Positions 28,275 to 41,398 of a stretch of DNA of 41,474 nucleotides are shown piece by piece; the first letter of the stretch is position 1; the number at the start of each line of letters is the position of its first letter. The stretch is from positions 1 through 41,474 of the forward strand of contig JACRNA010000022.1 in the NCBI GenBank assembly GCA_016219445.1, given 5' to 3'. The DNA comes from Candidatus Amesbacteria bacterium (lineage in GTDB: Bacteria > Patescibacteriota > Microgenomatia > CAZETR01 > Amesbacteraceae). A program made the position numbers and the translations under genes. The notes under the pieces were generated by a model. It ran no database searches and was not told where the DNA came from. It worked only from the letters and a program-made list of their open reading frames with translations.

Positions 28275-28583
28275 TTAGTCAATTGGCAAGGATATCTGTC
28301 TATCGATGACAGGCATCTGCATAGAGCTTTCGATATTTGTAAAATTACTCAATTGATTTCTGATCTCAGTCAAGCTGTCCGGGCTCGTGATATTTGAAGC
28401 GGGAATGGGCTTATATATTCCACTTCCTTCTGGATTTTGGATAGTAGCCGCGCGAAAAATTGGTAATTTTGCAATCAAAAGATCTACCACTAATACAAAT
28501 ATCATGGCAGGAATAGACAGCCAGACAGGACTAAGGCCGTGTGGTAGCTTCATGGAGTATTTGGGAGGCACTAGATAGAGCAT
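28275..28583 (-). CDS. Small hypothetical membrane protein
   Basis: ORF with one TM (WLSIPAMIFVLVVDLLIA). The start is uncertain (M11 at 28553 is possible). Confidence 0.4.
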   Translation of the reverse strand: MLYLVPPKYSMKLPHGLSPVWLSIPAMIFVLVVDLLIAKLPIFRAATIQNPEGSGIYKPIPASNITSPDSLTEIRNQLSNFTNIESSMQMPVIDRQISLPID

Positions 28584-29112
28584 CCCGGCTTTCTTTCAAA
28601 TAACTTAAGTAGTTTTCATATGACCAATCATTGGTATCTAATACGACCAAGTTACGCTTGGTTTCGGAAAACTGGAGCTTTTCTAAATAGAGCTTGGCGT
28701 TTCCGGTTGTCATTTTGTCGGTGGTGCCAATATTTGCCAGATTGTCCTGAAGGACTTGTAAATTGTTCTTGAGGATTGTCAGCCTGGCTTGGTTTGCTAC
28801 TTTTGTGATTCGTTCCAGCTTATTTTCCCATTCCAGACTTGCTTTGTTTACCTCAGTAAGCGTATCGTAGCTTTTGATGCTTTGCTCCCACGAGGTGAGT
28901 TCCGCATCCAAAGAATTTTCTCCTAAGCTATGTAAATACTCCAGTATCAATTTGTTTCTTGATAACAATAAAGTTAGAGTTTTATTGACTGCTTCCTGAC
29001 GGGTGGAACTCGTGCGGTATTGGATATATTGATTCTTGGCAGTCAAATACCGCTTGGAAGCTTGTTGGTAATCAGGGAATGCAGATAGGACAAATAATAA
29101 AATTGGCAGCAT
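28531..29112 (-). CDS. Hypothetical secreted / coiled-coil protein
   Basis: Signal-like N-terminus MLPILLFVLSAFP, otherwise helical. Only 26 nt separate its ATG from the left end of the inserted element. Confidence 0.5.
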   Translation of the reverse strand: MLPILLFVLSAFPDYQQASKRYLTAKNQYIQYRTSSTRQEAVNKTLTLLLSRNKLILEYLHSLGENSLDAELTSWEQSIKSYDTLTEVNKASLEWENKLERITKVANQARLTILKNNLQVLQDNLANIGTTDKMTTGNAKLYLEKLQFSETKRNLVVLDTNDWSYENYLSYLKESRDALSSASQILHEATTRP

Positions 29113-29138
29113 ATATCTATATTAACATTTTATGTTAT

Positions 29139-29223
29139 GTGGACTCTTTTTGAAAAAATCCGAACTTCCTTTCGCGAAAACCGCTAAACTGTCAGCTCGT
29201 CCCGCTTCGCGGGACTCGCTTTT
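29139..29223. repeat. IR-A, left copy (85 bp)
   Basis: Its reverse complement equals 33751-33835 with one mismatch (29181 C versus the complement of 33793 A). Similarity continues imperfectly with an indel to ~29273 / ~33719. Confidence 0.9.
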
Positions 29224-29820
29224 ATCCTTGCGCTCGCGGAGCTTATCCCGCTATGCGGGGCTCGCGCTTTCGATTATTTAAGAATGTTTTCGGCGCGCGC
29301 GTTCTCGCCAGCGGGCGAGTAAGGAAGGATTTATAGTTTTCCTTGGCCCACCCTTCCCGTCCGCGGAAAACGATTTTCTCCCCTGTATTGTAGCTGAAAA
29401 GACAAGAGAAATACAGGCTGTCTTGACTTCACACTATCCCACCCTCCCAGAATAAATTGATGGCGGCGACCCCATCCTCGTTCGCAGGGCGCCCTAGGGG
29501 GCGCCTCGCCAGTGTCTTTGCCTTCTAACTTCTCATACAATCTCTTCCGAAGTAAGAGAATTTCTTGTAAGTCAGCTCACTGCGGTGGGGTATCCGCTTT
29601 TTCGCCCCCGCCTTCTTTATTCTACCCCTGTCCAGTGTCCGTACCATTGGCGGGTAATTCGGATGGCTCGCCCTGCATTTCCTTCTATCCAAAGCATTTC
29701 CAGCAGGGCTCGCGTGGGTCGGGCGCACTCGTAAATGTTCCAAATAATACGTTAGAATTTCTGTCGTGCGCCCTCCTTTTCAGCAGGTACTCTCCGATGG
29801 GGCGGGGGCGGCGGAGCCGC
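29224..29820 (-). ncRNA. Candidate large structured RNA (GC-rich, hairpin-dense, class unknown; the strand is my best guess)
   Basis: No credible ORF. One 60-nt line (29461-29520) is 43/60 G+C by my count in an otherwise AT-rich genome. Nested helices, written as minus-strand RNA, include GGGCGCAC/GTGCGCCC, GCCCTGC/GCAGGGC, CCCGCC/GGCGGG, GGCGA[GGCGCCC-CCTA-GGGCGCC]...TCGCC, CTGTATT/AATACAG and GGAAAA-CGA-TTTTCC. On the minus strand a C(UUCG)G tetraloop hairpin is TCTCTT-A-C-TTCG-G-AAGAGA. The block starts 7 nt after the SEC-C stop. Confidence 0.45.
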
Positions 29821-29827
29821 CAATAAT

Positions 29828-31273
29828 CTATTTGAATACTTTATGCTTTTTCTCCAGCTCCAGAAAGATAGCTAATGGAACATTTGCCGTAAAGTTTTTT
29901 CTGTCGGTGCGAGCCTCTAATAGCTTACCAACCGCTGTGATACAAAAACCAAGGGCAGGTATTTGCCAATTCATTCCGCCTGATAAAATTGCTGCGATGC
30001 CCCCTGATCCTGTAACCCATTTTAGAAGTTCCTTATCAATTTTTGTCCATTCTTCTTTTGTTTTTCCATATTCTTCCTGTAATTCCTCAGATAACCGTCT
30101 TGCCAACTTTTCCGCCTCTTCGTATGATGGGTTTCCTTCAATACCGACCCATACCTTACGTAGGAACTGCCTAAATCCTTCCAGTCTGCCTTCTTCCTTT
30201 AACCTAAAAGCAAATTTAGGATCGATGTTGTTGAGAAAATTGAACTCTAGACTTTGGAAAGATTTTGTAAGAGGGCTCCAAACTTCACCTTCAGAAGATT
30301 GGGCCTGTTTTGTTGATAGAATTTCCCGCCATTGCTCCCGTCGGTCAGTATACAGATAGGACCCTGTCAATTGTCCGATGTACAAAGCAAGCTCTAGGTT
30401 TGCACCGTTCCTCATTACGTGGAGCTCCCCACCATCCGGTAGTTCCTGATCCAATATCATTGGGTCTTCTTTCCTCATTTTTTGTACGTATTGGACCATT
30501 TCGGCCATTCCTTTATTATCCATTGTGGGGATAGCGTTCTTGATGCTAATTGCGAGTTTATCTTTGGGTAACCGATACATAGTTTTGGCAAGCATTGCTA
30601 TACCTCTTGGTTTTATTTCGGCGATTGTTTCTTTTGTAAGTTCAAGTTTCTGATCTTTCCACCTTTTTTCAGCCATCTGCCATACTTCCTTCCTAAGTGA
30701 GTAATCGAAGTCGCAAGGGTTGGGAATAAGGTTGACTAGGCCAGCTCCAATCCAAGGCGCTAACCGGAAAATAAAGGCAATCATCTCTAGGGTATCTTGT
30801 TTATATAATTCAGGGTGAACGATTGGGTTAAAATCTGTAGCTATAGTACGAGGGTTCATAAAAGGACTAACTACTAAAACTTCATCCGTATAGAGGCTAT
30901 ACCTTACTATGTTTTGCAATATCGCGTTTAAATCAGGTTTGGTTTCACCCATATAAAAGCCTCTGAGATTTTTACTCGGTTTGGGTAGTAATGAAATAAT
31001 GTCCGTATCTGTTGGCCACAGCCAAGAAACGACTCTATAAAGCTCTCTTACTTGATCATTGGACATCTCTCGTCTGAAGTCATTCCAAGTTATGCCTCTA
31101 TTGAAGCCAAAAATATCAACGATCGCATTTAGAAGTACAACGTTTCTCTCCTTTATACTTCTTTGGTGAAAAGGATTGGATTGAGGTGTCACAGCAAGAT
31201 GCTTATTGAGATGACACTTTTTATATTTCCTCCCGCTACCACAAGGACATAGATCATTTCTACCGATTTTCAT
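29828..31273 (-). CDS. SEC-C metal-binding-motif protein of unknown function (481 aa)
   Basis: N-terminal GRNDLCPCGSGRKYKKCH is a SEC-C Zn motif. I do not recognise the remainder. The C-terminus has a Gly-rich hydrophobic stretch, GSGGIAAILSGGMNWQIPALGFCITAVGKLL. Confidence 0.7.
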   Translation of the reverse strand: MKIGRNDLCPCGSGRKYKKCHLNKHLAVTPQSNPFHQRSIKERNVVLLNAIVDIFGFNRGITWNDFRREMSNDQVRELYRVVSWLWPTDTDIISLLPKPSKNLRGFYMGETKPDLNAILQNIVRYSLYTDEVLVVSPFMNPRTIATDFNPIVHPELYKQDTLEMIAFIFRLAPWIGAGLVNLIPNPCDFDYSLRKEVWQMAEKRWKDQKLELTKETIAEIKPRGIAMLAKTMYRLPKDKLAISIKNAIPTMDNKGMAEMVQYVQKMRKEDPMILDQELPDGGELHVMRNGANLELALYIGQLTGSYLYTDRREQWREILSTKQAQSSEGEVWSPLTKSFQSLEFNFLNNIDPKFAFRLKEEGRLEGFRQFLRKVWVGIEGNPSYEEAEKLARRLSEELQEEYGKTKEEWTKIDKELLKWVTGSGGIAAILSGGMNWQIPALGFCITAVGKLLEARTDRKNFTANVPLAIFLELEKKHKVFK

Positions 31274-31341: not shown

Positions 31342-32763
31342 ATGATAACAAAGCGCCAGAAGCAGGTACTAGAGTTTATAAAAATATTTCGAGACAAGAA
31401 GGGCTATGCTCCGTCTTTGGAAGAAATAAAGCACCATTTTGGCCTAGCTTCGGTATCCACTGCTCATTATCACGTTAAGTCCCTCGAGAAAATGAGTTAT
31501 CTTAAAAAGCAGGAAAATTTACCGAGAAGCATTGATGTATTTGAAACACGGCCCATGGTTCAAATCCCTATTTTAGGTCGTATTTCTGCCGGGCAACCAA
31601 TAGAGGCAATTCAAGATAAAGAAATTATTGCGGTTCAACAAAACCTAATCCTTTCTTCCTCAGAAGTTTATGCTCTTCGTGTAGTTGGTAACAGTATGAT
31701 TGAAGAAAATATAAATGATGGTGATGTTATTTTAGTCCGCAAACAGGAAACCGCAGAAAACGGACAGAAAGTGGTCGCACTTATAGATAATCACGAAGCA
31801 ACTTTGAAGAAATTCTATAGAGAGAAGGGGCATATCCGATTGCAACCAGCTAATAAGGCTATGGAGCCACTTATATTTAGAAATGGACATGATATTTCTA
31901 TTCAAGGTGTTGTTTTGGATGTCATCCGAGAAGGGCTGTCGCCAACCGTTGTTTCCACAGAAATTGAAGCTAAACCTAGTGAATATAGGGAACTTCCCTT
32001 GAACGAAATTATCTGCGGAGACGCAGTTGACGTAATGAAGGCAATGCCTCCGGACTCGATTGATCTGGTGGTAACCTCCCCTCCATACGATGAATTAAGA
32101 AATTATAATGGTTATCGGTTCAATTTTGAGGGAATAGCCAAGGGACTATTCAGAGTTGTCAAAAAAGGCGGTGTCTTAGTGTGGGTAGTCGGAGACAAAA
32201 TAAATAAAGGGGATAGAAGTCTTACAAGCTTCAGACAAGCCCTGTTCTTTCAGAGTGTAGGTTTCAACGCCCATGATGTCATGATTTATAGGAAAAAGAA
32301 CACTCCTTTTATGAGATCTAATGCCTACACAAATTGCTATGAGTTTATGTTCGTTTTCAGTAAAGGTTCTCCCAAAACATTTAATCCCTTAAAAACCAAA
32401 ACCATCCGACAGGGTCAAGAAATGCTTCCGTTCAATAAAAAGGCAGATGGAATAAATAAAAAAACAAAAGGTGAGCTAAAACCAGAAAAAACCTTAACGA
32501 ATATCTGGGATTATGCCGTAGGGTTTGGTGGCTCGACTAGCGATAAAATTGCATTTCAACATACTGCTATATTCCCAGAAAAATTAGCAGAGGACCATGT
32601 TCTTTCATGGACAAAAACAGGAGATGTTGTTTTTGATCCAATGTGCGGTTCTGGAACGACTTGCAAAATGGCCGCTATAAATAAACGCTACTATATTGGA
32701 TGCGATATATCTAAAGAATATGTTGAACTTACGAAGAAAAGGCTAAAATACTTCAATCTCTAG
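31342..32763 (+). CDS. Fusion: complete LexA-type repressor (wHTH + S24 autopeptidase) + beta-class N4/N6 DNA methyltransferase
   Basis: Residues 1-~205: LexA wHTH (RQKQVLEFI...SLEEIKHHFGLASVSTAHYHVKSLEKMSYL), cleavage-site-like ISAGQPI, and the Ser/Lys dyad GNSM ... ATLKKF. Residues ~225-473: motif IV DLVVTSPPY comes before motif I FDPMCGSGTTCKMA, the beta-class order. SPPY is more typical of N4-cytosine enzymes. Confidence 0.8.
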   Translation: MITKRQKQVLEFIKIFRDKKGYAPSLEEIKHHFGLASVSTAHYHVKSLEKMSYLKKQENLPRSIDVFETRPMVQIPILGRISAGQPIEAIQDKEIIAVQQNLILSSSEVYALRVVGNSMIEENINDGDVILVRKQETAENGQKVVALIDNHEATLKKFYREKGHIRLQPANKAMEPLIFRNGHDISIQGVVLDVIREGLSPTVVSTEIEAKPSEYRELPLNEIICGDAVDVMKAMPPDSIDLVVTSPPYDELRNYNGYRFNFEGIAKGLFRVVKKGGVLVWVVGDKINKGDRSLTSFRQALFFQSVGFNAHDVMIYRKKNTPFMRSNAYTNCYEFMFVFSKGSPKTFNPLKTKTIRQGQEMLPFNKKADGINKKTKGELKPEKTLTNIWDYAVGFGGSTSDKIAFQHTAIFPEKLAEDHVLSWTKTGDVVFDPMCGSGTTCKMAAINKRYYIGCDISKEYVELTKKRLKYFNL

Positions 32764-33344
32764 TAGTTTTTCTTTAGAAACTCCATAGCACTTTTTAGCA
32801 ATTCAACATCGTCCTTGAAACGCCCTAGACCAGTATTACAACTATCGCATATCCAGCCACCTGGTCTGCCTGTACGATGATCGTGTTCTAGAACAACTTT
32901 GCTGGTTATGCCAGCAATTGTTCTTTTTTTACAAACTGGACATTCAAAAGGTTCGTTGTTTGGTTTCTTTTTAAGCCATTCTATTCTATCGGTTCGAGAT
33001 ACGCCGACACCTTCCATTTTTACACGACAATCTTTACAAGAGGGCCGCCTTACTGACCTATTATTTTTTGCGTTCTGATTTTTGGCAAAATCCGTTGTCT
33101 TTTTTAGTTTATGACAAACATTACAAATTTTTTTAGAAAATCCGTCTCCCGTTTTTCTCACATCTATAATATCGATACCATTTTTACCTAAATCAACTTG
33201 CTTCCAAATCCTTATAAAAAATATCGAAGCATTATTTTTTGCTTCTGACTTTATAACGCCAACATCACCTTTTTCAACTACAATCTCTCCGGGAGCTACA
33301 ATGCCCTTCTTTGCTACGACAAATTTATGTGGTGAATTAGTCAT
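32760..33344 (-). CDS. His-Me finger (Endonuclease VII / HNH-type) nuclease, probable restriction endonuclease
   Basis: LEHDHRTGRPGGWICDSCNTGLGRF matches the Endonuclease VII-family motif DH.H.TG..RG.LC..CN..LG. Additional CxxC pairs are CNVCH, CKDC and CPVCK. It is convergent and overlapping with the methyltransferase gene, and preceded by an HTH gene. Confidence 0.7.
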   Translation of the reverse strand: MTNSPHKFVVAKKGIVAPGEIVVEKGDVGVIKSEAKNNASIFFIRIWKQVDLGKNGIDIIDVRKTGDGFSKKICNVCHKLKKTTDFAKNQNAKNNRSVRRPSCKDCRVKMEGVGVSRTDRIEWLKKKPNNEPFECPVCKKRTIAGITSKVVLEHDHRTGRPGGWICDSCNTGLGRFKDDVELLKSAMEFLKKNY

Positions 33345-33562
33345 TTTAAAAAATAATCAACTGGCTTTTTATAAATTCGAGCAAATTCTTTCAGTGCAAC
33401 AATATCAATTCGCCTCTGTCCTGCTTCAACCTTTGAGACGTGAGATTGAGTCTTGCCGAGCATTTTTGCCACTTCTGCCTGATCTAAACCATTATCTTCT
33501 CGTGCTCTTTTGAGCTTTTCAATAAGGGCTTTGTGGTCTTTAGAAAAAATCGTTTTTGTCAT
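33341..33562 (-). CDS. XRE-family HTH protein (controller-protein-like)
   Basis: LDQAEVAKMLGKTQSHVSKVEAGQRRIDIVAL is a Cro/C1 HTH. ATGA overlap with the nuclease gene, the usual C-R operon layout. Confidence 0.8.
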   Translation of the reverse strand: MTKTIFSKDHKALIEKLKRAREDNGLDQAEVAKMLGKTQSHVSKVEAGQRRIDIVALKEFARIYKKPVDYFLK

Positions 33563-33646: not shown

Positions 33647-33666
33647 AAATTTTTGCGTTTTTCGGC
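33647..33666. repeat. 20-bp inverted repeat, left arm (AAATTTTTGCGTTTTTCGGC)
   Basis: Perfect reverse complement of 33955-33974. The pair brackets the hairpin-rich 33667-33954 block. Confidence 0.9.
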
Positions 33667-33750
33667 TGTCCCGATTACCATCGGGACAAAATTCGAACCG
33701 ACTTTTTGAGAAAAAGGTGCGAAAGCGCGAGCGAAGCGAGCGCAATGATA

Positions 33751-33835
33751 AAAAGCGAGTCCCGCGAAGCGGGACGAGCTGACAGTTTAGCGATTTTCGC
33801 GAAAGGAAGTTCGGATTTTTTCAAAAAGAGTCCAC
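33751..33835. repeat. IR-A, right copy (85 bp)
   Basis: Reverse complement of 29139-29223 with one mismatch. It contains the hairpin AGC-GA-GTCCCGC-GAA-GCGGGAC-GA-GCT. Confidence 0.9.
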
Positions 33836-33933
33836 CAAATTGGATTTTGTAGCGAGTCGGAGGCGGCTCCGCAGGAGCCGCCGAAGGAAAAGACCTCTGC
33901 GAAGCCCTTTTTGAACTGGCAAAAAAGCTGCCG
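33832..33933. repeat. IR-B, left copy (102 bp)
   Basis: Perfect reverse complement of 35401-35502, checked base by base. It contains the 9-bp hairpin GGCGGCTCC-GCA-GGAGCCGCC. Confidence 0.95.
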
Positions 33934-33954: not shown

Positions 33955-33974
33955 GCCGAAAAACGCAAAAATTT
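33955..33974. repeat. 20-bp inverted repeat, right arm
   Basis: GCCGAAAAACGCAAAAATTT is the reverse complement of 33647-33666. It ends 20 nt before the recombinase ATG. Confidence 0.9.
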
Positions 33975-33993: not shown

Positions 33994-35508
33994 ATGATTA
34001 AATACATTGCCTACTGCCGAAGATCAATCGAACAGGAAGAAAAACAGGCTTTATCTATCGAAGCGCAAATTGCCGAACTGAAAGAATTTGCGCTAAAAGA
34101 AAAACTTGATGTTGTGGAATTTTTAACCGAATCCAAGACCGCCAAAGTTCCCGGCCGCGAAGTTTTTGGCCAACTAATCAAGAAAATTCAGCAAGGCGAA
34201 GCTCAAGGAATTTTGGCATGGCACCCTGACAGACTGGCTAGGAATTCCGTTGATGGTGGCCAAATTATTTATCTTCTGGATACCGAAAAAATTCTTGACC
34301 TGAAATTTCCCACTTTCTGGTTTGACAGTACACCTCAAGGGAAATTCATGTTATCAATTGCTTTCTCTCAATCAAAATATTATGTGGACAATTTAAGTGA
34401 GAATGTAAAACGCGGTAATCGCCAAAAACTCCGTCGGGGTGTTTATCCCTCAAAAGCTCCAATTGGCTATTACAACGAACCGCGATTACGAACGATTGAA
34501 GTTGATCGACAAACAGCAACAATCGTTCAGAAAGCTTTTGAGATGTATGGGACCGGAAATTGCTCCATGGCTGATATTCAGCGATTTTTCTTTAAAAAAG
34601 GAGTCAGAAGAAAGAAAAATGACAAAATGTTGCCCATGAGCCAAGTTCAAAAACTTTTATCAAACACTTTTTACTATGGTTTGATGAAATATGCCGGCGA
34701 ATTTTATGAAGGGATCCATAAACCATTAATCTCCAAAGGTTTGTTCGACAAAGTTCAACAAGTTCAAAAACAGCGCGGAAAACCGAGAAAACAAGCCCAC
34801 AATTTTCCGTTTCTCGGCCTTGTTCGTTGTGGTGAATGTGGGGCTTCGGTGACTGCTGAAGAACACTTCAAGTTTTATCCTTCAACCAGAGGTAAAGTTG
34901 CGTATGTTTACTATCACTGCACAAAAAGGAAAATTCGCCAGCCCTGTTCACAGCGTTACCTCAATAGTGTCGAGTTTGAAAAACAGCTACGGGAACTTTT
35001 AGCAAAAATAAATCTCCCCAAAAGATGGGCTGAAAAGTGGCTGGAGAAACTGGATCAGGAACAAAAAACGGAAATTGGCAGAGTTGAGGAAAACACAACA
35101 GAAATTAACCAAAAAGTACAAACAGTCGACCAAAAATTAGGCCGCTTGTTAGACGTTTATCTAAATCAGGAAGTTGACCTGCTTTCCTATCAACAAAAGA
35201 AAAGTCAATTATTGGAAGAAAAAGTCGGACTGAAAGAAAAAATTGCAGAGACATTAAAAAACGGAAACGATTGGTTCGAACCAATGAGGGAATTTATAAA
35301 CGTGGCCGCCGAAGCGGCCAAAACCGCGCGCGCCGAAAACAATAACCAAGAATTAAAACTCTTGGTTCAAAAAGTCGGTTCGAACTACACTTTATTAAAT
35401 CGGCAGCTTTTTTGCCAGTTCAAAAAGGGCTTCGCAGAGGTCTTTTCCTTCGGCGGCTCCTGCGGAGCCGCCTCCGACTCGCTACAAAATCCAATTTGGT
35501 GGGCCTGA
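33994..35508 (+). CDS. Large serine recombinase (LSR1)
   Basis: Resolvase catalytic domain (IAYCRRSIEQEEKQ, WHPDRLARNSVDG), recombinase domain, zinc ribbon (RCGECGASVTAE...YYHCTKRK) and a coiled coil. The last ~35 codons lie in IR-B, and the TGA (35506-35508) lies inside tRNA-Leu. Confidence 0.9.
   Translation: MIKYIAYCRRSIEQEEKQALSIEAQIAELKEFALKEKLDVVEFLTESKTAKVPGREVFGQLIKKIQQGEAQGILAWHPDRLARNSVDGGQIIYLLDTEKILDLKFPTFWFDSTPQGKFMLSIAFSQSKYYVDNLSENVKRGNRQKLRRGVYPSKAPIGYYNEPRLRTIEVDRQTATIVQKAFEMYGTGNCSMADIQRFFFKKGVRRKKNDKMLPMSQVQKLLSNTFYYGLMKYAGEFYEGIHKPLISKGLFDKVQQVQKQRGKPRKQAHNFPFLGLVRCGECGASVTAEEHFKFYPSTRGKVAYVYYHCTKRKIRQPCSQRYLNSVEFEKQLRELLAKINLPKRWAEKWLEKLDQEQKTEIGRVEENTTEINQKVQTVDQKLGRLLDVYLNQEVDLLSYQQKKSQLLEEKVGLKEKIAETLKNGNDWFEPMREFINVAAEAAKTARAENNNQELKLLVQKVGSNYTLLNRQLFCQFKKGFAEVFSFGGSCGAASDSLQNPIWWA
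35401..35502. repeat. IR-B, right copy (102 bp)
   Basis: Perfect inverted copy of 33832-33933. It overlaps the recombinase 3' end and the last 6 nt (CCACCA on the tRNA strand) of tRNA-Leu(UAG). Confidence 0.95.
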
Positions 35509-35581
35509 GAGGACTCGAACCTCTACCCCTCGCGGGACAGGTTCCTAAAACCTGCGTGTATACCAATTTCACCACAAGCCC
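35497..35581 (-). tRNA. tRNA-Leu(UAG), type II; CCA present, with C75-A76 supplied by the element side of the junction
   Basis: Manual fold: acceptor GGGCTTG/CAGGCCC, D arm GTG-AAATTGGTATA-CAC, anticodon arm CAGGT-TTTAGGA-ACCTG, long variable arm CCC-GCGA-GGG, T arm AGAGG-TTCGAGT-CCTCT, discriminator A. Confidence 0.9.
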
Positions 35582-35590
35582 AATTCTGAA

Positions 35591-35596
35591 ATTATA
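35591..35596 (-). promoter_or_regulatory. TATAAT box 9 nt upstream of the tRNA-Leu(UAG) 5' end
   Basis: The minus strand reads GTTGTATAATTTCAGAATT-GGGCTTG. Confidence 0.35.
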
Positions 35597-35598
35597 CA

Positions 35599-35633
35599 AC
35601 AAAAAAGCCTCGACTCCTGCCCGTTGTCGAGGC
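35599..35633 (-). terminator. Rho-independent terminator after the methyltransferase gene
   Basis: The minus strand reads GCCTCGAC-(11 nt)-GTCGAGGC followed by TTTTTTGTTG (stems at 35607-35614 / 35626-35633). Confidence 0.7.
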
Positions 35634-35691
35634 TCAAGAATTATGTCGCCTCAAAAATTAATTTAAAGCCACAAAACCTATATATACTATA

Positions 35692-36447
35692 CTATAGGAC
35701 AGCTTGTCTGTCAAGTCGCTGGACTTTCACAAAAATACTCGGTCCAAAATAGATACTTGCTAGGGTTTTTTGAAGCCAATTTTCGAGTTTCAATGAATTG
35801 AAAGGTAATCCCCTAAAATTGGATACAGACAGCAATTTGTCAATCTTATATCCACTCTTGATCAGGAGTTTTTGTAATGAAACCGGATGATGATTGACAA
35901 AGGGAATGGTCTGATTGCGGATGTTGACAGCCCGCCTTCTATCTATGGGAGCTGGCAATATGGGCTTGCCAGAAATAAAGCTCATAATACGAGATTTCAA
36001 ATTCAGAGAATTGGCAAATTCAATAATAGCTACACCATTGGGTTTTAATATTCGGTGGATTTCATTTAAGACAATACTGGTTTCTGTCAGGTGATGCATG
36101 ACCCGAACCATGACCACCAGATCACAGCTCTGGTCGGGTAGCTTTGTCTTCTGGCAAGTACCAGCTAGAATTTTGATATTCTTTATACCCTTCAAATGAG
36201 ACTTGGCAAAATTTCGCTGTTTTAGTGATGGCTCTACAAGCAGTACTTGCTTGGCATAAGAAGTCAGAAAGCTTGCCAATCTCCCGTATCCCCCACCTAG
36301 ATCCAAGGCAGTCTGAAAATGCCGGGTACCCAAGAGATTTTTTAGAGCAATAATTTCACTCTCGTGTTCATAGTTTCTGGTTTTCCAATAATCCAGATAG
36401 GAAAAATCGGGGTCATCATAAAAGTGTCCCATATTACTCGATGTCAC
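35692..36447 (-). CDS. Class I SAM-dependent methyltransferase
   Basis: ALDLGGGYGRL (motif I), LLVEPS, CDLVVMVRVMHH. Confidence 0.75.
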   Translation of the reverse strand: MTSSNMGHFYDDPDFSYLDYWKTRNYEHESEIIALKNLLGTRHFQTALDLGGGYGRLASFLTSYAKQVLLVEPSLKQRNFAKSHLKGIKNIKILAGTCQKTKLPDQSCDLVVMVRVMHHLTETSIVLNEIHRILKPNGVAIIEFANSLNLKSRIMSFISGKPILPAPIDRRRAVNIRNQTIPFVNHHPVSLQKLLIKSGYKIDKLLSVSNFRGLPFNSLKLENWLQKTLASIYFGPSIFVKVQRLDRQAVL

Positions 36448-37003
36448 TTAAAAATTGGTTGACTCCCTTGGCCCAAGAGCCTTGGGAGGGAGGAGTATAT
36501 TTGGCCATGATTTTTTCGGGTGTGTCCAAGCCTTTATCTACATAATTCTTTTTCAAGCCCCTAGCAACCGTATCCATCCCATCGACAAACGACTCAAATC
36601 TGGTCACCAGATCACCATAAATTCCATAGCCCCAGCAATTGTAGGAATTAACAGGGATCTTTTTACAGAGATTTGACTCTTGCTGAGCAATTGCTGCCAG
36701 AAGTCTCCAATCAAGGCCGTATTTATCGGAAATTTCGACTAATTCTCTGGCGTGGGGAAGCAATGGAGACTTGTATTTCTTGAGATAATTTGTGATGAGG
36801 AGCACTCTACCGTCAGCAGAGCCAAACTTTAGATTCCAAGTGGGAACAGAGTCATCTTTGGGACTTAGGACTTGGGTCGTATAGGCTACATCAGCTTTAG
36901 GGATAGTAGGCGCAGGAGCGCTCAAGACCAAGGTAAGAAAGGTGGCGACTAATGTCAATGGTGCGCCTATCGCAAATCCCCCTACCCACCATAGTTTATG
37001 CAT
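36434..37003 (-). CDS. Membrane-anchored protein with a lysozyme-like / lytic-transglycosylase-like motif
   Basis: N-terminal TM. LLAAIAQQESNLC resembles the SLT catalytic-Glu-Ser motif. The assignment is weak. Confidence 0.4.
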   Translation of the reverse strand: MHKLWWVGGFAIGAPLTLVATFLTLVLSAPAPTIPKADVAYTTQVLSPKDDSVPTWNLKFGSADGRVLLITNYLKKYKSPLLPHARELVEISDKYGLDWRLLAAIAQQESNLCKKIPVNSYNCWGYGIYGDLVTRFESFVDGMDTVARGLKKNYVDKGLDTPEKIMAKYTPPSQGSWAKGVNQFLSDIE

Positions 37004-37032
37004 GCCTCTATTTTACCAAATTTTCATTTTTA

Positions 37033-37117
37033 GTGTCGGGAGCGGGACTCGAACCCGCACGAAGCAAAAACTTCGAGAGCTCTTAAGGCTCTTGCGTATA
37101 CCATTTCGCCACCCCGA
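37033..37117 (-). tRNA. tRNA-Leu(UAA), type II, no encoded CCA
   Basis: Acceptor GTCGGGG/TCCCGAC, D arm GCG-AAATGGTATA-CGC, anticodon arm AGAGC-CTTAAGA-GCTCT, variable arm CGAAG-TTTTTG-CTTCG, T arm GCGGG-TTCGAGT-CCCGC. Confidence 0.9.
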
Positions 37118-37142
37118 CTAGATGCATTAATCATTTTATCAT

Positions 37143-38120
37143 TTAAACCTCTCGGATGACTTCAAATCCCTTTAGGCTTCCGACAACGGCGAAACCGTAG
37201 ACTTTTTGGGCAATGCCCATTTGTTTTATTTTTTTGGCCGTCTCGTTTAGAGTCGCTGCTGAACCGACAGCATCATCAATTAATAATAAATTATTATATC
37301 TGACATTAATTTTATCAATAAATATTGTTTCTCTAGCATTTCTGATTCTTTCCTCCAGCTTACCCAATGTCTTCTGAGCGACTCTGATTTTACCTGGATA
37401 TGCCTTGGACATATCTACGATTGGCAAAGCAAGATTTAGCTTTTTGGCAAATTCTTTTAAAAACTGGACCTTGCGCAAAATACTATGAGGTAGGTAACCT
37501 ATAGCATCAATATTTTTTTCAATAATAAGTTTATTTATAATGTCTTTAGATTCTTCTGCTGTTATCGCAATAAGATCACGATTTTCAGATTGTTTGGAAT
37601 AGAGCATTAAACACCCGAGTCTAGTCTTGCCAAAAGTCGGCAAACTATAAAAATCGCTGTAGTATATACCATCCAAATTCATATCTGATCTATATGTAGC
37701 AGATACGTTTGATGTCGCGTCAATCCATCCTTCTGATGAAAATAGAGAATTGGCACTTTCTCTGTCTTTGATATACTGAGATAACAAGCTATTTTCCTGT
37801 TCAGACTTACTGACATTTGATAACCAGCTACGAAAACCAGACAGTCCATCTCTAAACTGTCCAGTTGGGTCTACATAAGCAAAATATTTATCCAATAAAA
37901 CATGAGTTTCTTTGATTTGGTCGGGAGATATTGTAACTAATGTATAGAATACCTTTGGCGCGGACCCGGACTTGGTCAATTTGCCAATTTCAACTAAGGA
38001 TTTTAGTTGGCGGTGAAGTGCCACCTTACCTATGCCTAAGTGATCGGCTAGCTCACTTACTCTAGCCTGACCATTAGTTTTTAGGTATCCCAGAATTTTA
38101 ATTTTTGTATCTGTAATCAT
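37143..38120 (-). CDS. Winged-HTH + phosphoribosyltransferase-domain protein (PurR-like architecture)
   Basis: The N-terminus KILGYLKTNGQARVSELADHLGIGKVALHRQLKSL is a wHTH. The C-terminal LLLIDDAVGSAATLNETAKKI is the PRPP-binding loop of type I PRTases. Confidence 0.65.
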   Translation of the reverse strand: MITDTKIKILGYLKTNGQARVSELADHLGIGKVALHRQLKSLVEIGKLTKSGSAPKVFYTLVTISPDQIKETHVLLDKYFAYVDPTGQFRDGLSGFRSWLSNVSKSEQENSLLSQYIKDRESANSLFSSEGWIDATSNVSATYRSDMNLDGIYYSDFYSLPTFGKTRLGCLMLYSKQSENRDLIAITAEESKDIINKLIIEKNIDAIGYLPHSILRKVQFLKEFAKKLNLALPIVDMSKAYPGKIRVAQKTLGKLEERIRNARETIFIDKINVRYNNLLLIDDAVGSAATLNETAKKIKQMGIAQKVYGFAVVGSLKGFEVIREV

Positions 38121-38153
38121 AGTATACAGTATACCATATATTATATACTATTG

Positions 38154-38227
38154 TGGACGGCTAGGGATTCGAACCCCAGACCCCCGCTGTGTAAAAGCGG
38201 TGCTCTAACCAGCTGAGCTAGCCGTCC
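38154..38227 (-). tRNA. tRNA-Val(UAC), no encoded CCA
   Basis: Acceptor GGACGGC/GCCGTCC, D arm GCTC-AGCTGGTTA-GAGC, anticodon arm CCGCT-TTTACAC-AGCGG, T arm TGGGG-TTCGAAT-CCCTA. Confidence 0.9.
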
Positions 38228-38239
38228 GAATGAATAGAG

Positions 38240-38322
38240 TGCGGCGAGAGGGAGTCGAACCCACACATCCTTGCGGACACTGGCTTCTGAGGCCAGCGCG
38301 TCTGCCATTCCGCCATCGCCGC
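38240..38322 (-). tRNA. tRNA-Leu(CAG), type II, no encoded CCA
   Basis: Acceptor GCGGCGA/TCGCCGC, D arm GCG-GAATGGCAGA-CGC, anticodon arm CTGGC-CTCAGAA-GCCAG, variable arm TCC-GCAA-GGA, T arm GTGGG-TTCGACT-CCCTC with one U-U mismatch. Confidence 0.85.
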
Positions 38323-38384
38323 GCACTTTAAATATTTTAACATATTATCTTTACAAAATATGGTATACGCTATATACTTGAGAT

Positions 38385-39041
38385 ATGGACTGGACCGCTA
38401 ACCTTGCTTATGTTGTGGGTCTTATTACTACGGACGGTAATTTATCTAAAGATGGAAGGCATCTTATATTTGTTTCAAAAGAGCTAGAACAAATAGAGAA
38501 TTTTAAAACTGGTTTAAAAATTAATAATAAAGTAGGAATCAAGACTGGAGGCTACTCTGGTAGTGGGCAATGTTATTATATTCAATTCAGTAATGTTGCC
38601 ATATATAATTTTTTATTATCAATCGGTCTAATGCCAAATAAAACCAAAATATTAGGTAAAATGGATATTCCAGATAACTATTTTCCGGACTTCCTTAGAG
38701 GTCATTTGGATGGAGATGGTACAACTTACTCGTATTGGGACAAAAGATGGAGATCAAGCTTCATGTTGTATATGACGTTTATCTCGGCGAGTAAAGAACA
38801 TTTAAAGTGGATGAAATTTAATATTTTTAGGTTATATGGAATCTCTGGAACACTAAAGTTTAGTGGTAGATCAGTTTATCATTTGGTATTTGCTAAGATT
38901 GCTTCAATCAAGCTCATAAACATTGTATATTATACTCAGGTTAAGCTTTTCTTAAGCCGAAAAAGGTTTAAAATACTGCAAGCATTAGATATAATCAAAA
39001 AAGTACGCCGGGATGTTGTAATGGTAGCCAAGCATGCTTGA
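38385..39041 (+). CDS. Free-standing double-motif LAGLIDADG homing-endonuclease-like protein
   Basis: LAYVVGLITTDGNL and FLRGHLDGDGTT are the two LAGLIDADG motifs. The last 35 nt of the ORF lie inside tRNA-Leu(GAG). Confidence 0.8.
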   Translation: MDWTANLAYVVGLITTDGNLSKDGRHLIFVSKELEQIENFKTGLKINNKVGIKTGGYSGSGQCYYIQFSNVAIYNFLLSIGLMPNKTKILGKMDIPDNYFPDFLRGHLDGDGTTYSYWDKRWRSSFMLYMTFISASKEHLKWMKFNIFRLYGISGTLKFSGRSVYHLVFAKIASIKLINIVYYTQVKLFLSRKRFKILQALDIIKKVRRDVVMVAKHA

Positions 39042-39089
39042 GGTGCATGTGCTGTAAAAAGCGTGGAGGTTCGAGTCCTCTTCCCGGCA
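39007..39089 (+). tRNA. tRNA-Leu(GAG), type II, no encoded CCA
   Basis: Acceptor GCCGGGA/TCCCGGC, D arm TTG-TAATGGTAGC-CAA, anticodon arm CATGC-TTGAGGT-GCATG, variable arm GCT-GTAAAA-AGC, T arm GGAGG-TTCGAGT-CCTCT. Confidence 0.85.
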
Positions 39090-39114
39090 CAAAATTGATA
39101 TAATATGTATTGTT

Positions 39115-39187
39115 GCCGAGATAGCCAAGATGGTCAAGGCGCTTGTCTGAAGAACAAGTTATAAAGGTTCGAGTCCTTTTCTCGGCA
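39115..39187 (+). tRNA. tRNA with GAA anticodon (Phe), atypical D arm and G37
   Basis: Acceptor GCCGAGA/TCTCGGC, D arm GCC-AAGATGGTCAA-GGC (Ser/Leu-like), anticodon arm CTTGT-CTGAAGA-ACAAG, short variable region, T arm AAAGG-TTCGAGT-CCTTT. A TATAAT box lies at 39099-39104. Confidence 0.7.
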
Positions 39188-39223
39188 CTTTGACAAATAA
39201 AGTAGTCTGGTATCTTTGAACTA

Positions 39224-39903
39224 TTGATGTTATCCTGTATTTGGATGATAAGATTAGTCAGAGATCTTGAATTGTTTAAGAAAGTTGAAATAGCTAGGAA
39301 GCTTGGGAGAAGTTACTCAGATTTAAACAAAGAGTTCAAAGTTTCTAAAAGTGCTTTAAGTTCTTGGTTTTCAAGTTCTAAGTGGTCGAGTGACATTAAA
39401 ACGTCTTTTGTCATTAGAAATAATGAGCATAATAAAGACAGATTGATGGCAATGAATAAAGCAAAAGCTAAGTATAAACTTGCAAGGTATACTAAATACC
39501 AAATCCCCTGTTTTTTACTGGTGTCTCACTATATTGGGGCGAGGGTGAAAAGGCAAACAAAAGCAGAGTTTCCATAATTAATTCCGACGCCAATCTTCTA
39601 AAAGTTGAAATCAGTTTTTTTAGAAATATTATGTTGATTCCTGAAGAAAAGTTAAGAGCAGCTATTTTTATCTATAGTGATATTGATGCAAACAAGGCTC
39701 TAGAGTACTGGTCAGATCAAATTAAGTTATCAAAGAAACAATTTATAAAAACTCAGATTTTACCCAGCCATAGTAAACTCACCCAAAGAAGAACTTTATA
39801 CGGTATGTGTAATGTCTATTTTTCAAGCACGGAATTTAATGTTAAAATGAGGGGGTGGATTGACTTATTGGCAAATGATTACGCGGCTATGGTTCATCGG
39901 TAG
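39224..39903 (+). pseudogene. HTH + LAGLIDADG-like ORF split by a frameshift near 39493-39520
   Basis: Frame A (39224-39577) gives an HTH, EIARKLGRSYSDLNKEFKVSKSALSSWF. Frame B is open from 39496 and reads IPNPLFFTGVSLYWGEGEKANKSRVSIINSD...MLIPEEK, continuing into ORF 39631-39903. The switch lies at a CCCCTGTTTTTT run. The last 21 nt overlap tRNA-Gly. Confidence 0.5.
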
Positions 39904-39953
39904 AACACGTTCTTGCCAAGAATGAGAGACGGGTTCGATTCCCGTTAGCCGCT
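39883..39953 (+). tRNA. tRNA-Gly(GCC), no encoded CCA
   Basis: Acceptor GCGGCTA/TAGCCGC, D arm GTTC-ATCGGTA-GAAC, anticodon arm CGTTC-TTGCCAA-GAATG, T arm ACGGG-TTCGATT-CCCGT, discriminator T. Confidence 0.9.
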
Positions 39954-41398
39954 CCCTCCCCTCGGGCTTTTTTGTCGGAAAGGATGAGGTTCGAGCCGAA
40001 GATTTTTTGGGCCAACACTTTTTTGGCTTCTAAGTCTTTACCCCTTGCGATATTAGCCGCGTCAGCGGCTTCAATTATCCACTCTCTCATGGGTTCGAGC
40101 CAAGCATGGTGCGTTTGCTCAAAGCGGAAGATTTGTTCTTCCAGCGTCTTCTTTTCTGATAACAATTCTGATTTCTTGTTGAGATACGAATCGCGGTCAA
40201 CATCCTGATCAAGATATGAGTAAAGAAGACGCTGAAGTCTGAACGTTTTTTCTTTGATCTCTTCCCGCTTGCTTTGAGTAAACGCACCGCAGGAATGGGC
40301 AAGTTCCGTTTTCTCTCCTTCCAGTTTGTCTAACATCTTTCTTGCCCAGTCCTGCCGCAAAGAAACTGACAAAATCATGTCTGATAATTGGCTGTCCAGC
40401 TCTTCCTGTCTGATGAATGGCTGTATGCATTTAATAGTCTTGGACTTTTTCGTGCACCGGTAATAGGTATAGGTGGCGTGATGATTGGTGTGTATATAAT
40501 ATTTCAATTTCTGTTCGGCGGTGATCATCATGTTGCACTCCCCGCAACGAAAAAGTCCTAAGAATGGTTTGAGAATACGGGGTTTTGACCAGGATTTTGA
40601 TCTTTTGTTTAAGACCAGCTGGACAGCCTCAAACAGTTTCTTTGCGATGATTGGCTCTTGAACCCCTTCGTGGATCTCGCCGAGGAAACGGAAATGGCCA
40701 TAATAAAAGGGGTTGGTAAGAATATGTTTGGTTACCTGATTAATCGGCCATGATTTACCGCCACTGGTAATAATGCCATTTCCCGCCAAAAAGTCTCTGA
40801 TATCCATGATCCGATAGGTTCCGGTAGCAAACATCTCAAAAGCCTGTTTAACAATAGGAGCTTTTTTGCGGTCAACGGCAATGGTTTTAGTCAGCGGATC
40901 GTTGAGATAGCCAACAGGCGCAAGTCCTGGCATTTCTCCTCTTCTGACTTTTTGGCGCAGACCTCTCTTGGTGTTTTCCGAAAGCGAGTCCACGAAGTAT
41001 TTACTCTGTCCAAAGGCGATTTGCAGCATAAATTTACCTTGGGGTGTGGCTTCAAACCAGAACTGGGGAAACTTCAGGGCTTTGATCTTATCCGTGTCGA
41101 CTAGATATATTAATTTTCCTCCGTCGACACTATTGCGCGCAAGTCTGTCCGGATGCCAGCTGACAATGCCGCTCGCTTCCTCTTTTTCAATCCGGTCGAT
41201 CATAGAGTTAAAAATGGGACGGCCTGGTATTTTGGCGGATTGTTTCTCGATAAGCTCCTCGACTACAAATAACTTTTCGCGAGCGGCATATTCCCGGAGT
41301 TCGGCAAGCTGAGCCTCAATAGACAAGATTTGCTTGTCTTCGACATCTGTTGATTTGCGCGCATACAAAAAGAATTTTGGGGTGTCCATGACTATCAA
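39887..41398 (-). CDS. Large serine recombinase (LSR2), paralogous to LSR1
   Basis: LYARKSTDVEDKQ, WHPDRLARNSVDG, zinc ribbon RCGECNMMITAE...YYRCTKKS, and a coiled coil. It aligns with LSR1 along most of its length. The last ~22 codons are antisense to tRNA-Gly(GCC), so the real C-terminus is uncertain. Confidence 0.85.
   Translation of the reverse strand: MIVMDTPKFFLYARKSTDVEDKQILSIEAQLAELREYAAREKLFVVEELIEKQSAKIPGRPIFNSMIDRIEKEEASGIVSWHPDRLARNSVDGGKLIYLVDTDKIKALKFPQFWFEATPQGKFMLQIAFGQSKYFVDSLSENTKRGLRQKVRRGEMPGLAPVGYLNDPLTKTIAVDRKKAPIVKQAFEMFATGTYRIMDIRDFLAGNGIITSGGKSWPINQVTKHILTNPFYYGHFRFLGEIHEGVQEPIIAKKLFEAVQLVLNKRSKSWSKPRILKPFLGLFRCGECNMMITAEQKLKYYIHTNHHATYTYYRCTKKSKTIKCIQPFIRQEELDSQLSDMILSVSLRQDWARKMLDKLEGEKTELAHSCGAFTQSKREEIKEKTFRLQRLLYSYLDQDVDRDSYLNKKSELLSEKKTLEEQIFRFEQTHHAWLEPMREWIIEAADAANIARGKDLEAKKVLAQKIFGSNLILSDKKARGEGAANGNRTRLSFLARTCSTDEP

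Follow-up and report, generated by a model that had tools for sequence, protein, structure and literature searches.

A predicted large structured RNA of a previously unclassified family, carried on inverted-repeat cassettes beside large serine recombinases in Patescibacteria

The 41,474-nt stretch JACRNA010000022.1 (hereafter the window, whose forward-strand numbering is used for all coordinates) carries a GC-rich block at 29224–29820, between two protein-coding genes. Comparative sequence analysis indicates that this block is a genuine gene for a structured RNA that had not been classified before; its sense strand is the window's minus strand, and it has a core of about 400 nt within a full extent of up to about 700 nt. 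Homologues are found at at least about 110 loci, which were located with two independent sequence patterns and confirmed with nhmmer; nearly all are from Patescibacteria or from groundwater. The family counts given here are lower bounds, and the loci are numbered from L001 onward. We propose, with a probability of about 0.6, that the RNA belongs to a new class of mobile, trans-acting structured RNA that is carried as cassette cargo.

A GC-rich block with a covarying core

The GC content of the block is 54.4%, against 39.6% for the window. This is the highest value among all 597-nt segments, the others of which reach 53.4% at most, and the count of 43 G+C in the 60 nt from 29461 to 29520, on which the original prediction had remarked, is correct. 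The block occupies a 715-nt gap, 29113–29827, flanked by two minus-strand open reading frames (ORFs). The ORF at 28531–29112 encodes a 193-aa protein without a Pfam match, and the ORF at 29828–31273 encodes a protein with a SEC-C motif. The view that the block has no credible ORF of its own is borne out by its relatives. The block contains chance ORFs of 104 aa on the plus strand and of 72 and 69 aa on the minus strand. Among 51 homologues no reading frame is conserved: the longest stop-free frame varies with the sequence and has a median no greater than 64 aa, compared with a length of 153 codons. The block has neither iterons nor tandem repeats. When folded, the minus strand has a minimum free energy of −255.8 kcal/mol (z = −4.5) and the plus strand one of −240.3 kcal/mol (z = −3.0), each compared with 20 shuffles.

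The original prediction could assign the block to no class of RNA, and database searches agree. At the gathering score, Rfam 15 finds eight tRNAs in the whole window and nothing else. In the segment 28900–30100, searched on both strands at E ≤ 10, there are two noise matches only, to mir-320 and ST7-AS2. The Rfam families without a match include GOLLD, ROOL, OLE, HEARO (RF02033), raiA, RNase P RNA, transfer-messenger RNA (tmRNA), signal recognition particle (SRP) RNA, 6S RNA, and the group I and group II introns. ARAGORN likewise reports eight tRNAs and no tmRNA in the window. The Rfam and ARAGORN results together rule out RNase P RNA, tmRNA, SRP RNA and 6S RNA, the candidates with housekeeping-like conservation. 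A blastn search with the 715-nt gap gave zero matches in phage and plasmid collections.

That the block specifies a large structured RNA, as had been predicted, is supported by the pattern of substitutions in the family. The 79 near full-length copies form 54 clusters at 94% identity. An alignment of 54 sequences, A3, displays invariant blocks together with variable, length-polymorphic hairpins in the core. The core was realigned with 51 non-redundant sequences over 29429–29823 of the minus strand to give A5, for which the RNAalifold consensus has 48 pairs, 24 of them with compensatory changes. The structure that we tested has 59 pairs, that is, the RNAalifold pairs plus helices added by eye and by a column-pair scan. 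It was compared with shuffled alignments and with slid controls, as follows. The proportion of cells that are paired is 90.2%, against 81.4% for shuffled and 39–46% for slid alignments. Pairs changed on both sides number 26, against 18.0 (shuffled) and 9–12 (slid), and cells changed on both sides number 218, against 59 and 17–32. The covariation score is 0.250, against 0.093 for the shuffled alignments and at most 0.053 for the slid ones. None of 500 shuffles attained any of the observed covariation or pairing values.

The individual helices, numbered as in Table 1, contribute to different extents. Double changes occur in all seven pairs of P4 (95.2% paired), in six of the seven pairs of P6 (98.9% paired) and in six of the seven pairs of P3, which is 96.3% paired and shows up to four pair types per position. 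The two strands of P3 covary even within the small group formed by the window, L010 and L011, which have in common the sequence TCCGCCGCCCCCGC ... CAGAAA and in which the strands read GGGCGCAC/GUGCGCCC, GGGCUACC/GGUAGCCC and GUAUUGCC/GGUAAUGC. In P1, two of the six core pairs have double changes and 98.7% of cells are paired; its outward extension also covaries, as GGUGGUGGC/GCCACCACC in L035 and GAAGCGGC/GCCGCUUC in L042. The distance from the SEC-C stop codon (29828–29830) to the start of this first helix, at 29822/29823, is 5 nt and not the 7 nt initially estimated. The P2b part of P2 is 97.6% paired and invariant, with no covariation; the P2a part is 67.5% paired, owing to a shift in the alignment at the AAAA/AAAAA bulge. 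The long-range helix P7 is 80.5% paired, with abundant G·U pairs. P5 is 96.5% paired, and an alternative partner, GGGGUA at about 29623–29628, is possible. The original prediction had proposed that two G-rich boxes pair with CCCCACC in pseudoknots. The three sequences are present (29438–29448, 29347–29358 and 29584–29590), but the pseudoknot is not upheld, as every homologue pairs the CCCC with GGGGU (29469–29473) and the next three nucleotides, ACC, are not conserved.

From these helices the core would be organized as follows. P1, P2 and P5 would meet at a junction that carries two sub-domains. The first would consist of P7, P3 and P4, and the second, inside P5, of P8, the UUCG hairpin and P6.

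The choice of the minus strand, favored in the original prediction because of a C(UUCG)G hairpin loop, has gained in strength. The loop is present at 29547–29552, and at the same place relatives have C(UACG)G (L117 and L162) or C(UUCG)G (L111 and L134). That is, the change from UUCG to UACG keeps a UNCG loop on the minus strand. Among the paired cells, GU or UG pairs number 106 and AC or CA pairs 25; without P7 the figures are 32 and 16. Tandem G·A pairs flank the GC mini-hairpins on the minus strand only. The RNAalifold energies of the two strands are close (−76.3 versus −73.8), and the strand call therefore rests on the GU:AC ratio, the UNCG loops and the tandem G·A pairs.

Beyond the core the conserved sequence continues in the 3′ direction and, as predicted, runs into an inverted repeat, IR-A (29139–29237, with an inverted copy at 33736–33835). 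The hairpin around G box 2 has 15 distinct copies by nhmmer, and both strands of its stem differ in relatives, which have UUGUCC/GGACAA or GUUUUC/GAAAAC (one pair lost per strand). The AGC-GA-stem-GA-GCT hairpins noted earlier in IR-A are found at 29194–29219 and 29240–29265. This mini-hairpin module varies in number among relatives and is also inserted within the core. About 40 loci have a variant of the 27-nt terminal motif on the strand of the core and 3′ of it. The motif was considered as a promoter and as an intrinsic terminator. The former is ruled out, since L089 and L131 have a convergent gene beyond the motif, and so is the latter, since there is no GC stem with a U tract on the RNA strand. 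In L141, L111, L177 and L066 a same-strand tRNA gene comes after the motif; in L141, where the motif is at 124–149 and the tRNA-Glu at 44–121, the tRNA starts 2 nt past the motif. It follows that the outer boundary of a cassette can abut the 5′ end of one tRNA gene, and the recombinase end the 3′ end of another.

Table 1. Positions of the RNA elements, repeats and genes in the window
Feature	Position	Strand	Description
Conserved core	29429–29823	−	395 nt here, 390–520 nt in relatives; closed by P1
P1	29816–29822 (UGGCGGC) with 29461–29467 (GCCGCCA)	−	Closes the core; A5 columns 10–16 with 669–695
P2	29801–29815 (UCCGC-CGCCCCCGCC) with GGCGGGGGCG 29603–29612 and GCGGA 29593–29597	−	G/C helix with A-rich bulge, almost invariant
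P7	29793–29797 (UCGGA) with 29659–29663 (UCCGA)	−	Long-range, encloses P3 and P4; A5 columns 38–42 with 218–222
P3 hairpin	29766–29773 with 29721–29728	−	GGGCGCAC ... GUGCGCCC; conserved CAGAAA opens the loop
P4 hairpin	29703–29709 with 29670–29676	−	GCCCUGC ... GCAGGGC; flanked by conserved ACGCGAG and CGAGCC
P5	29587–29591 (ACCCC) with 29469–29473 (GGGGU)	−	Invariant C-G pairs; encloses second half of core
UUCG hairpin	29541–29559, C(UUCG)G at 29547–29552	−	From sequence
P6 hairpin	29488–29505	−	GGCGCCC-CUAG-GGGCGCC; near-invariant palindromic CCUAGG tip
G box 1	29438–29448	−	GGGAGGGUGGG; family consensus GGGUGGGUGGG; just 3′ of P1, near-invariant at the end of A5
G-box-2 hairpin (3′ module)	29336–29371	−	GUUUUCC ... 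GGAAAAC around G box 2, GCGGACGGGAAGGGUGGGCCAA (29347–29358)
Two GC mini-hairpins	29194–29219, 29240–29265	−	AGC-GA-stem-GA-GCU; from sequence
Terminal motif, 27 nt	29139–29165	−	GTTCGGATTTTTTCAAAAAGAGTCCAC; tip of IR-A
IR-A, outer arm	29139–29237		Inverted copy at 33736–33835
IR-A′, inner arm	33736–33835		97% identical to IR-A over 100 nt
Junction J (IR-A′/IR-B)	33820–33851		TTCAAAAAGAGTCCAC.CAAATTGGATTTTGTA; partly dyad-symmetric, as read from the sequence
IR-B, inner arm	33832–33933		102 nt, 100% complementary to 35401–35502; overlaps IR-A′ by 4 nt
IR-B′, outer arm	35401–35502		Overlaps 3′ end of recombinase ORF and last 6 nt of tRNA-Leu
SEC-C-motif protein, 481 aa	29828–31273	−	Pfam
LexA/S24-N4/N6 methylase fusion	31342–32763	+	Pfam, PADLOC
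His-Me/EndoVII type II restriction enzyme	32760–33344	−	Pfam, PADLOC
XRE helix-turn-helix protein	33341–33562	−	Pfam
Large serine recombinase, 504 aa	33994–35508	+	Pfam Resolvase, Recombinase, Zn_ribbon_recom
tRNA-Leu(TAG)	35497–35581	−	Rfam, ARAGORN; outer boundary

Relatives, cassettes and the recombinase platform

The two sequence patterns behave differently in the collections searched. In the GTDB genome collection the first pattern, built on the sequence common to the window, L010 and L011, matches at least 62 stretches, of which about a dozen are true homologues, 500–700 nt in length; its six matches in viral contigs are all chance matches in GC-rich DNA. The second pattern, taken from the middle of the element (GGCGGGGGCGAA..GCGGA..ACCCC), matches at least 102 stretches in metagenome contigs and none in the viral contigs of IMG/VR. 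The GTDB homologues come from metagenome-assembled genomes (MAGs) of Patescibacteria, Levy-, Davies- and Blackburnbacteria, with a few in low-GC contigs binned as Gammaproteobacteria or Troglogloeales. The copies in MAGs with the latter two labels (L064, L066, L042 and L033) are on contigs of 37–51% GC. L064 and L066 are identical over 557 nt, including 40 nt of upstream flank, yet are assigned to different phyla. These copies probably reflect binning contamination and not a wide host range. Many short-read contigs stop inside the RNA or inside the inverted repeats (L001, L010, L011, L091, L100, L106, L145, L182–L184 and others). Long identical runs between co-occurring strains, together with the inverted repeats, would explain contig ends within the element. 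As the RNA and the repeats break short-read assemblies in this way, such loci are probably under-represented or split in MAGs.

The gene upstream of the RNA in the window is not a regular companion. The SEC-C gene has hundreds of homologues, and 11 of its loci were followed. RNA-like DNA is found after the SEC-C stop only in L010 and L011 (proteins P0004 and P0009); no RNA lies downstream of the SEC-C gene in L009, where the protein is 77% identical, or in L002–L008. Since most of the SEC-C loci followed lack the RNA, we reject the idea that it is a SEC-C-specific partner or untranslated region. The SEC-C protein has no matches in the viral contigs scanned. In L003, L010 and L011 the SEC-C homologues adjoin LexA/S24 or XRE/ImmA regulators, and the DNA downstream of them varies. 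The immediate neighbors across the family are diverse: an M23 peptidase in 12 of 54 loci, an SNase in 7 of 54, and then many others. The lack of a constant protein partner argues for a self-contained RNA. A further hairpin module, GGCCAA-N11-TTGGCC with the loop UUUCCACCAUU or its complement, is found once per locus in 37 loci of the family (for example, L056 7836–7858, L033 414–436 and L153 210–232). It can be on the 5′ or the 3′ side of the core, and its loop can point either way; the window lacks it.

The original prediction placed the block in a mobile element near a tRNA gene. The element is an IR-bounded cassette with a large serine recombinase attached to it at tRNA-Leu, laid out as follows. 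The two arms of IR-A, 4.5 kb apart, hold five features: the RNA, the SEC-C protein, the methylase fusion, the restriction enzyme and the XRE regulator. The cargo thus includes a type II restriction–modification pair, in which the methylase carries a fused module with LexA-like DNA-binding and S24 peptidase parts. Next to the inner arm of IR-A is the inner arm of a second, unrelated repeat, IR-B, which brackets the recombinase gene. The joined inner arms (33736–33933) are the reverse complement of the two outer ends (29139–29237 and 35401–35502) placed together. In other words, an intact junction is inside, and inverted 100-nt copies of each half are at the ends, and the same holds for L151, L185 and L186. 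Simple integration by a serine integrase does not predict this layout.

The layout recurs. Inverted copies of the terminal module lie 3–9 kb upstream of the core in L042, L089, L131, L139 and L151, and L078/L167 have an inverted copy of the 26-nt terminal motif only. Self-blast gives IR pairs of 91–266 bp with 98.6–100% identity. Of 109 loci, 19 have a homologue of the recombinase (36–94% identical); among the 33 for which 5 kb or more of upstream sequence is available, the figure is 13. The gene is either just past the inner arm and pointing away or directly 3′ of the RNA. At least ten independent loci show the combination of double IRs, recombinase and cassette, and the cassette end that carries the RNA may be on one side or the other. 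L151 has the entire chain, down to tRNA-Gly. Sampling from the recombinase side revealed the same chain at tRNA-Pro (L185) and tRNA-Ile (L186), and the recombinase-side half of it in L182 (tRNA-Ile) and L183 (tRNA-Lys), whose contigs both begin within the inner arm. The boundary tRNA therefore varies among loci: Gly (L151, L153), Pro (L170, L185), Ile (L182, L186) and Lys (L183). Within 10 kb of the L185 and L186 platforms there is no RNA core, and the cassette there is a single gene, which makes the RNA an optional cargo of the platform. Where it is present, the RNA is at the cassette end and reads outward through the repeat. The remaining cargo differs widely, from an M23 peptidase, a nuclease and a 1362-aa surface protein (L131) to metabolic genes (L089).

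Two simpler accounts of the repeats were set aside. They are not the ends of a transposon with its own transposase, since the cassettes of L131, L089 and L078 contain no recombinase, which is outside them. They are not assembly artefacts either, since several pairs are only 81–98% identical and the repeats recur across assemblers and samples.

The point where the inner arms meet, junction J, is a candidate recombinase site, to judge from its symmetry: both halves carry T-N-CAAAA at equal distances from the center. The T-loop-like GTTCGR of the terminal motif is about 5 nt farther from the junction than the GTTCGA of the tRNA T-loop. This offset recalls the way in which the attP and attB half-sites of large serine recombinases differ. 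An 11-nt identity between the 5′ end of the RNA and a hairpin of IR-B was dismissed, since it is not conserved at other loci. The recombinase ORF itself crosses the junction with the tRNA gene, with its last two codons and stop inside tRNA-Leu (35497–35508), so the C-terminus of the recombinase would change if the segment were joined to other DNA.

Related loci differ in the orientation of the cassette. In L130, whose recombinase is 85% identical to that of the window, the RNA, the terminal module, IR-B and the recombinase follow one another on one strand. The order in L153 and L108 is the same; in L154/L127 the recombinase is convergent with the RNA. The L130 arrangement is that of the window cassette reversed, as the RNA of the window is at the far end, which is also the case in L089 and L042. 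These orientations match what inversion at the repeats would produce, as far as a comparison between loci goes. A simple ancestral RNA-site-recombinase order would also explain L130. The alternative orientation in the same strain was sought by way of the flanking 193-aa protein, of which no record was found.

Other features of the platform region are as follows. A perfect 20-nt inverted pair, 33647–33666 and 33955–33974 (AAATTTTTGCGTTTTTCGGC/GCCGAAAAACGCAAAAATTT), lies upstream of the divergent XRE and recombinase genes. AAACGCAAAAATT precedes the recombinase start in L089, L131, L183, L185 and L186, and is also present as TGCAAAAATT in L186. The 20-nt pair is probably a shared operator or promoter element. 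Seven tRNA genes occupy 35497–39955 (three Leu, Val, Leu, Phe and Gly), with a recombinase gene at each end of the cluster. The second large serine recombinase gene, at 39887–41398 on the minus strand (503 aa), overlaps with its 3′ end the 3′ end of tRNA-Gly (39883–39955, plus strand). Its DNA is 71–75% identical to that of the L153 and L108 recombinases, both of which have an RNA copy just upstream. The window ends 76 nt upstream of the second recombinase gene, and a second copy of the RNA may lie just outside it.

Proposed role and alternatives

The family, its fold, its strand and its genomic linkage are observed features, and from them we infer transcription, the exact ends of the RNA, its action in trans and its function. 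The RNA is the cargo of a cassette, always located at one cassette end and reading outward, with the cassette attached to an IR-bracketed recombinase at a tRNA gene. We suggest that it would act in trans as a folded RNA, either as a protein scaffold or as a self-assembling particle. In this it would resemble other large ornate RNAs on mobile elements, and it would stand apart from the recombination chemistry. The proposal agrees with several observations. The RNA is more conserved than any neighboring protein, it lacks a constant protein neighbor, and its core, closed by P1, is found in cassettes with very different cargo. In sequence it has the traits of a large ornate non-coding RNA, being more than 400 nt long, with many covarying helices, conserved blocks and no conserved ORF.

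Several observations weigh against this proposal or against details of the fold on which it draws. P1, P2 and P5 barely vary, so that their covariation says little about whether the model is right. Alternative pairings are possible in the G- and C-rich runs, of G box 1 with the C-rich 5′ strand and of GGGGUA with UACCCC. In the P8 region, in the middle of the core, 53% of cells are paired and the alignment shifts. No promoter or terminator belonging to the RNA was identified in the window. There the RNA starts 5 nt past the SEC-C stop, and in the M23 subfamily just 26–59 nt separate its 5′ end from the divergent gene. With such short 5′ gaps and no promoter found, an independent promoter is not evident. 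Finally, the fixed position and orientation at the cassette edge also fit a role in cis.

That last alternative would make the RNA a cis-acting element of the cassette, the 3′ end of an outward transcript that serves as a stabilizer, processing site, insulator or terminator. It would control read-through across the IR into whatever is beyond, be it the 193-aa gene (window), a tRNA (L141, L111, L177, L066) or the recombinase (L130, L153, L108). We regard it as a possible but rather unlikely explanation. The RNA is always the IR-proximal, outward-reading part of its cassette, often begins 3–70 nt after the stop of a same-strand gene (window, L117, L066, L042, L110), frequently has a gene or tRNA 2–160 nt past its terminal motif, and has no promoter that we could find. 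These points favor a cis element. However, a 400-nt core with rRNA-like invariance across unrelated cargo exceeds the needs of a terminator or stabilizer, and on the minus strand there is no U-tract terminator after the core. Moreover, 12 of 54 loci have a divergent gene upstream, and the gene past the motif is convergent in L089 and L131.

It is tempting to connect the RNA with the recombinase itself. The RNA would then be part of an undescribed recombination device, in which a tRNA-anchored recombinase flips or moves IR cassettes and the RNA sets directionality, much as a directionality factor would, reports or senses orientation, or aids the recognition of sites and the choice of tRNA end. 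If true, this would be the first RNA partner of a serine recombinase. We consider it improbable. At every locus with enough flank the RNA is coupled to the IRs of the recombinase, and in L130, L153 and L108 RNA, junction and recombinase succeed one another on one strand. The offset of the GTTCGR in the terminal motif and the parallel with IS110 and IS200/605 elements, which have structured RNAs at their ends, can be cited in the same sense, as can the G boxes, which in the window and in L153 are complementary over 8–9 nt to the 3′ end of the adjacent tRNA. Yet L185 and L186 have the full layout of IRs, recombinase and tRNA without the RNA. The tRNA complementarity is missing in L151, L170 and L143 and is no more than G-rich sequence would give by chance; the guide-like complementarity to junctions or tRNA ends amounts to chance-level matches (8–9 nt to the tRNA 3′ end in two of five loci). 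Guide-like variable loops that change with the att sequences were not found, and large serine recombinases are, as far as we know, protein-only enzymes.

Less likely still is that the conserved feature resides in the DNA, as a recombination accessory region, an origin of replication or transfer, or a structure in single-stranded DNA. The block does adjoin a recombination site, its plus strand also folds better than shuffled sequence (z = −3.0), and mini-hairpins of the GCGAAGC type are very stable as DNA. Against this stand the strand asymmetry (GU:AC of 106:25, with UNCG loops and tandem G·A pairs on one strand only), the long-range helices that close a domain of 395 nt, and the lack of iterons or tandem repeats. 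The remaining explanation, decayed coding sequence or functionless foreign GC-rich DNA, which the high GC in an AT-rich genome and the chance ORFs of 69–104 aa might suggest, is already refuted by the covariation tests and the absence of a conserved frame, and some 110 homologues with invariant blocks and compensatory changes, as well as the blank blastn searches of phage and plasmid collections, also speak against it.

Trans action remains our preferred reading. There are few large bacterial RNAs that are highly conserved and whose function is unknown, and RNase P RNA, tmRNA, OLE, GOLLD, ROOL, HEARO and the bridge RNA have each opened new biochemistry. To our knowledge, the non-coding RNAs of the candidate phyla radiation (CPR)/Patescibacteria are almost unexplored. 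From this group comes a family with more than 100 members, a core backed by compensatory changes and no Rfam match. Its strict placement, at the outward end of an IR cassette on a recombinase at a tRNA gene, offers a concrete setting in which to look for its function.

Comparison with known systems

The nearest counterparts are GOLLD and ROOL, large ornate RNAs that are often on prophages and near tRNA genes. Like these and OLE, the RNA described here has at least 400 nt, many covarying helices, strong conservation, no ORF and no obligatory adjacent protein gene, and like GOLLD and ROOL it is carried by mobile DNA near tRNA genes. It differs in that it has no match to the Rfam models even at E ≤ 10, is found in other phyla (Patescibacteria and groundwater lineages), lacks matches in IMG/VR viral contigs and in phage and plasmid collections, and is tied to an IR cassette of a large serine recombinase and not to phage genomes. 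GOLLD and ROOL form RNA-only homo-oligomers (PMC12286853). The palindromic CCUAGG loop of the present RNA might mediate self-association.

The RNAs that partner the enzymes of transposable elements, namely HEARO/omegaRNA with IscB, reRNA with TnpB and bridge RNA with IS110, also are structured RNAs at the end of a mobile unit beside a recombination site. In L130, L153 and L108 the RNA comes immediately before the recombinase gene and shares its strand, a position reminiscent of them. In contrast, the present RNA is much larger, no guide segments were found in it, and recombinase loci without it exist. No IscB, TnpB or IS110 (DEDD) protein appears among the 25 commonest of the 86 Pfam families of 123 neighbors at 54 loci, or in scans of the window's genes. 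The recombinases in the window and among the family's neighbors are of the Resolvase/Recombinase or the Phage_integrase type.

The platform may be compared with two groups of serine recombinases. With Hin/hix, Gin/gix of phage Mu, Cin and Pin it shares an IR-flanked segment with a serine recombinase gene adjacent or inside, and, as with Hin and Gin, both segment orientations are seen, here among related loci (window, L089 and L042 versus L130, L153 and L108). It differs in its enzyme, which has 504 aa with Recombinase and Zn-ribbon domains, against about 190 aa for an invertase, in its repeats, which measure 90–270 bp and form two mutually unrelated pairs, and in its outer arm, which overlaps the 3′ end of a tRNA gene. 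With phiC31, Bxb1 and TnpX it shares the set of Resolvase, Recombinase and Zn-ribbon domains, a recombinase gene at the boundary of the element, a boundary in a conserved host gene (the tRNA 3′ end), and a candidate dyad-symmetric site beside the gene. However, recombination of attP with attB leaves hybrid direct repeats of a few bp, whereas here there are an intact inner junction and long inverted half copies. This recombinase layout, with two adjacent IR pairs and an intact inner junction, seems to be undescribed, and it may represent a general platform for cassette inversion or cassette capture in CPR/Patescibacteria. In the literature searched we found no description of this RNA or of any RNA associated with a serine recombinase. 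That mobile DNA can carry large ornate RNAs is already known; to these RNAs the present family apparently adds a new class, in an apparently undescribed recombinase setting.

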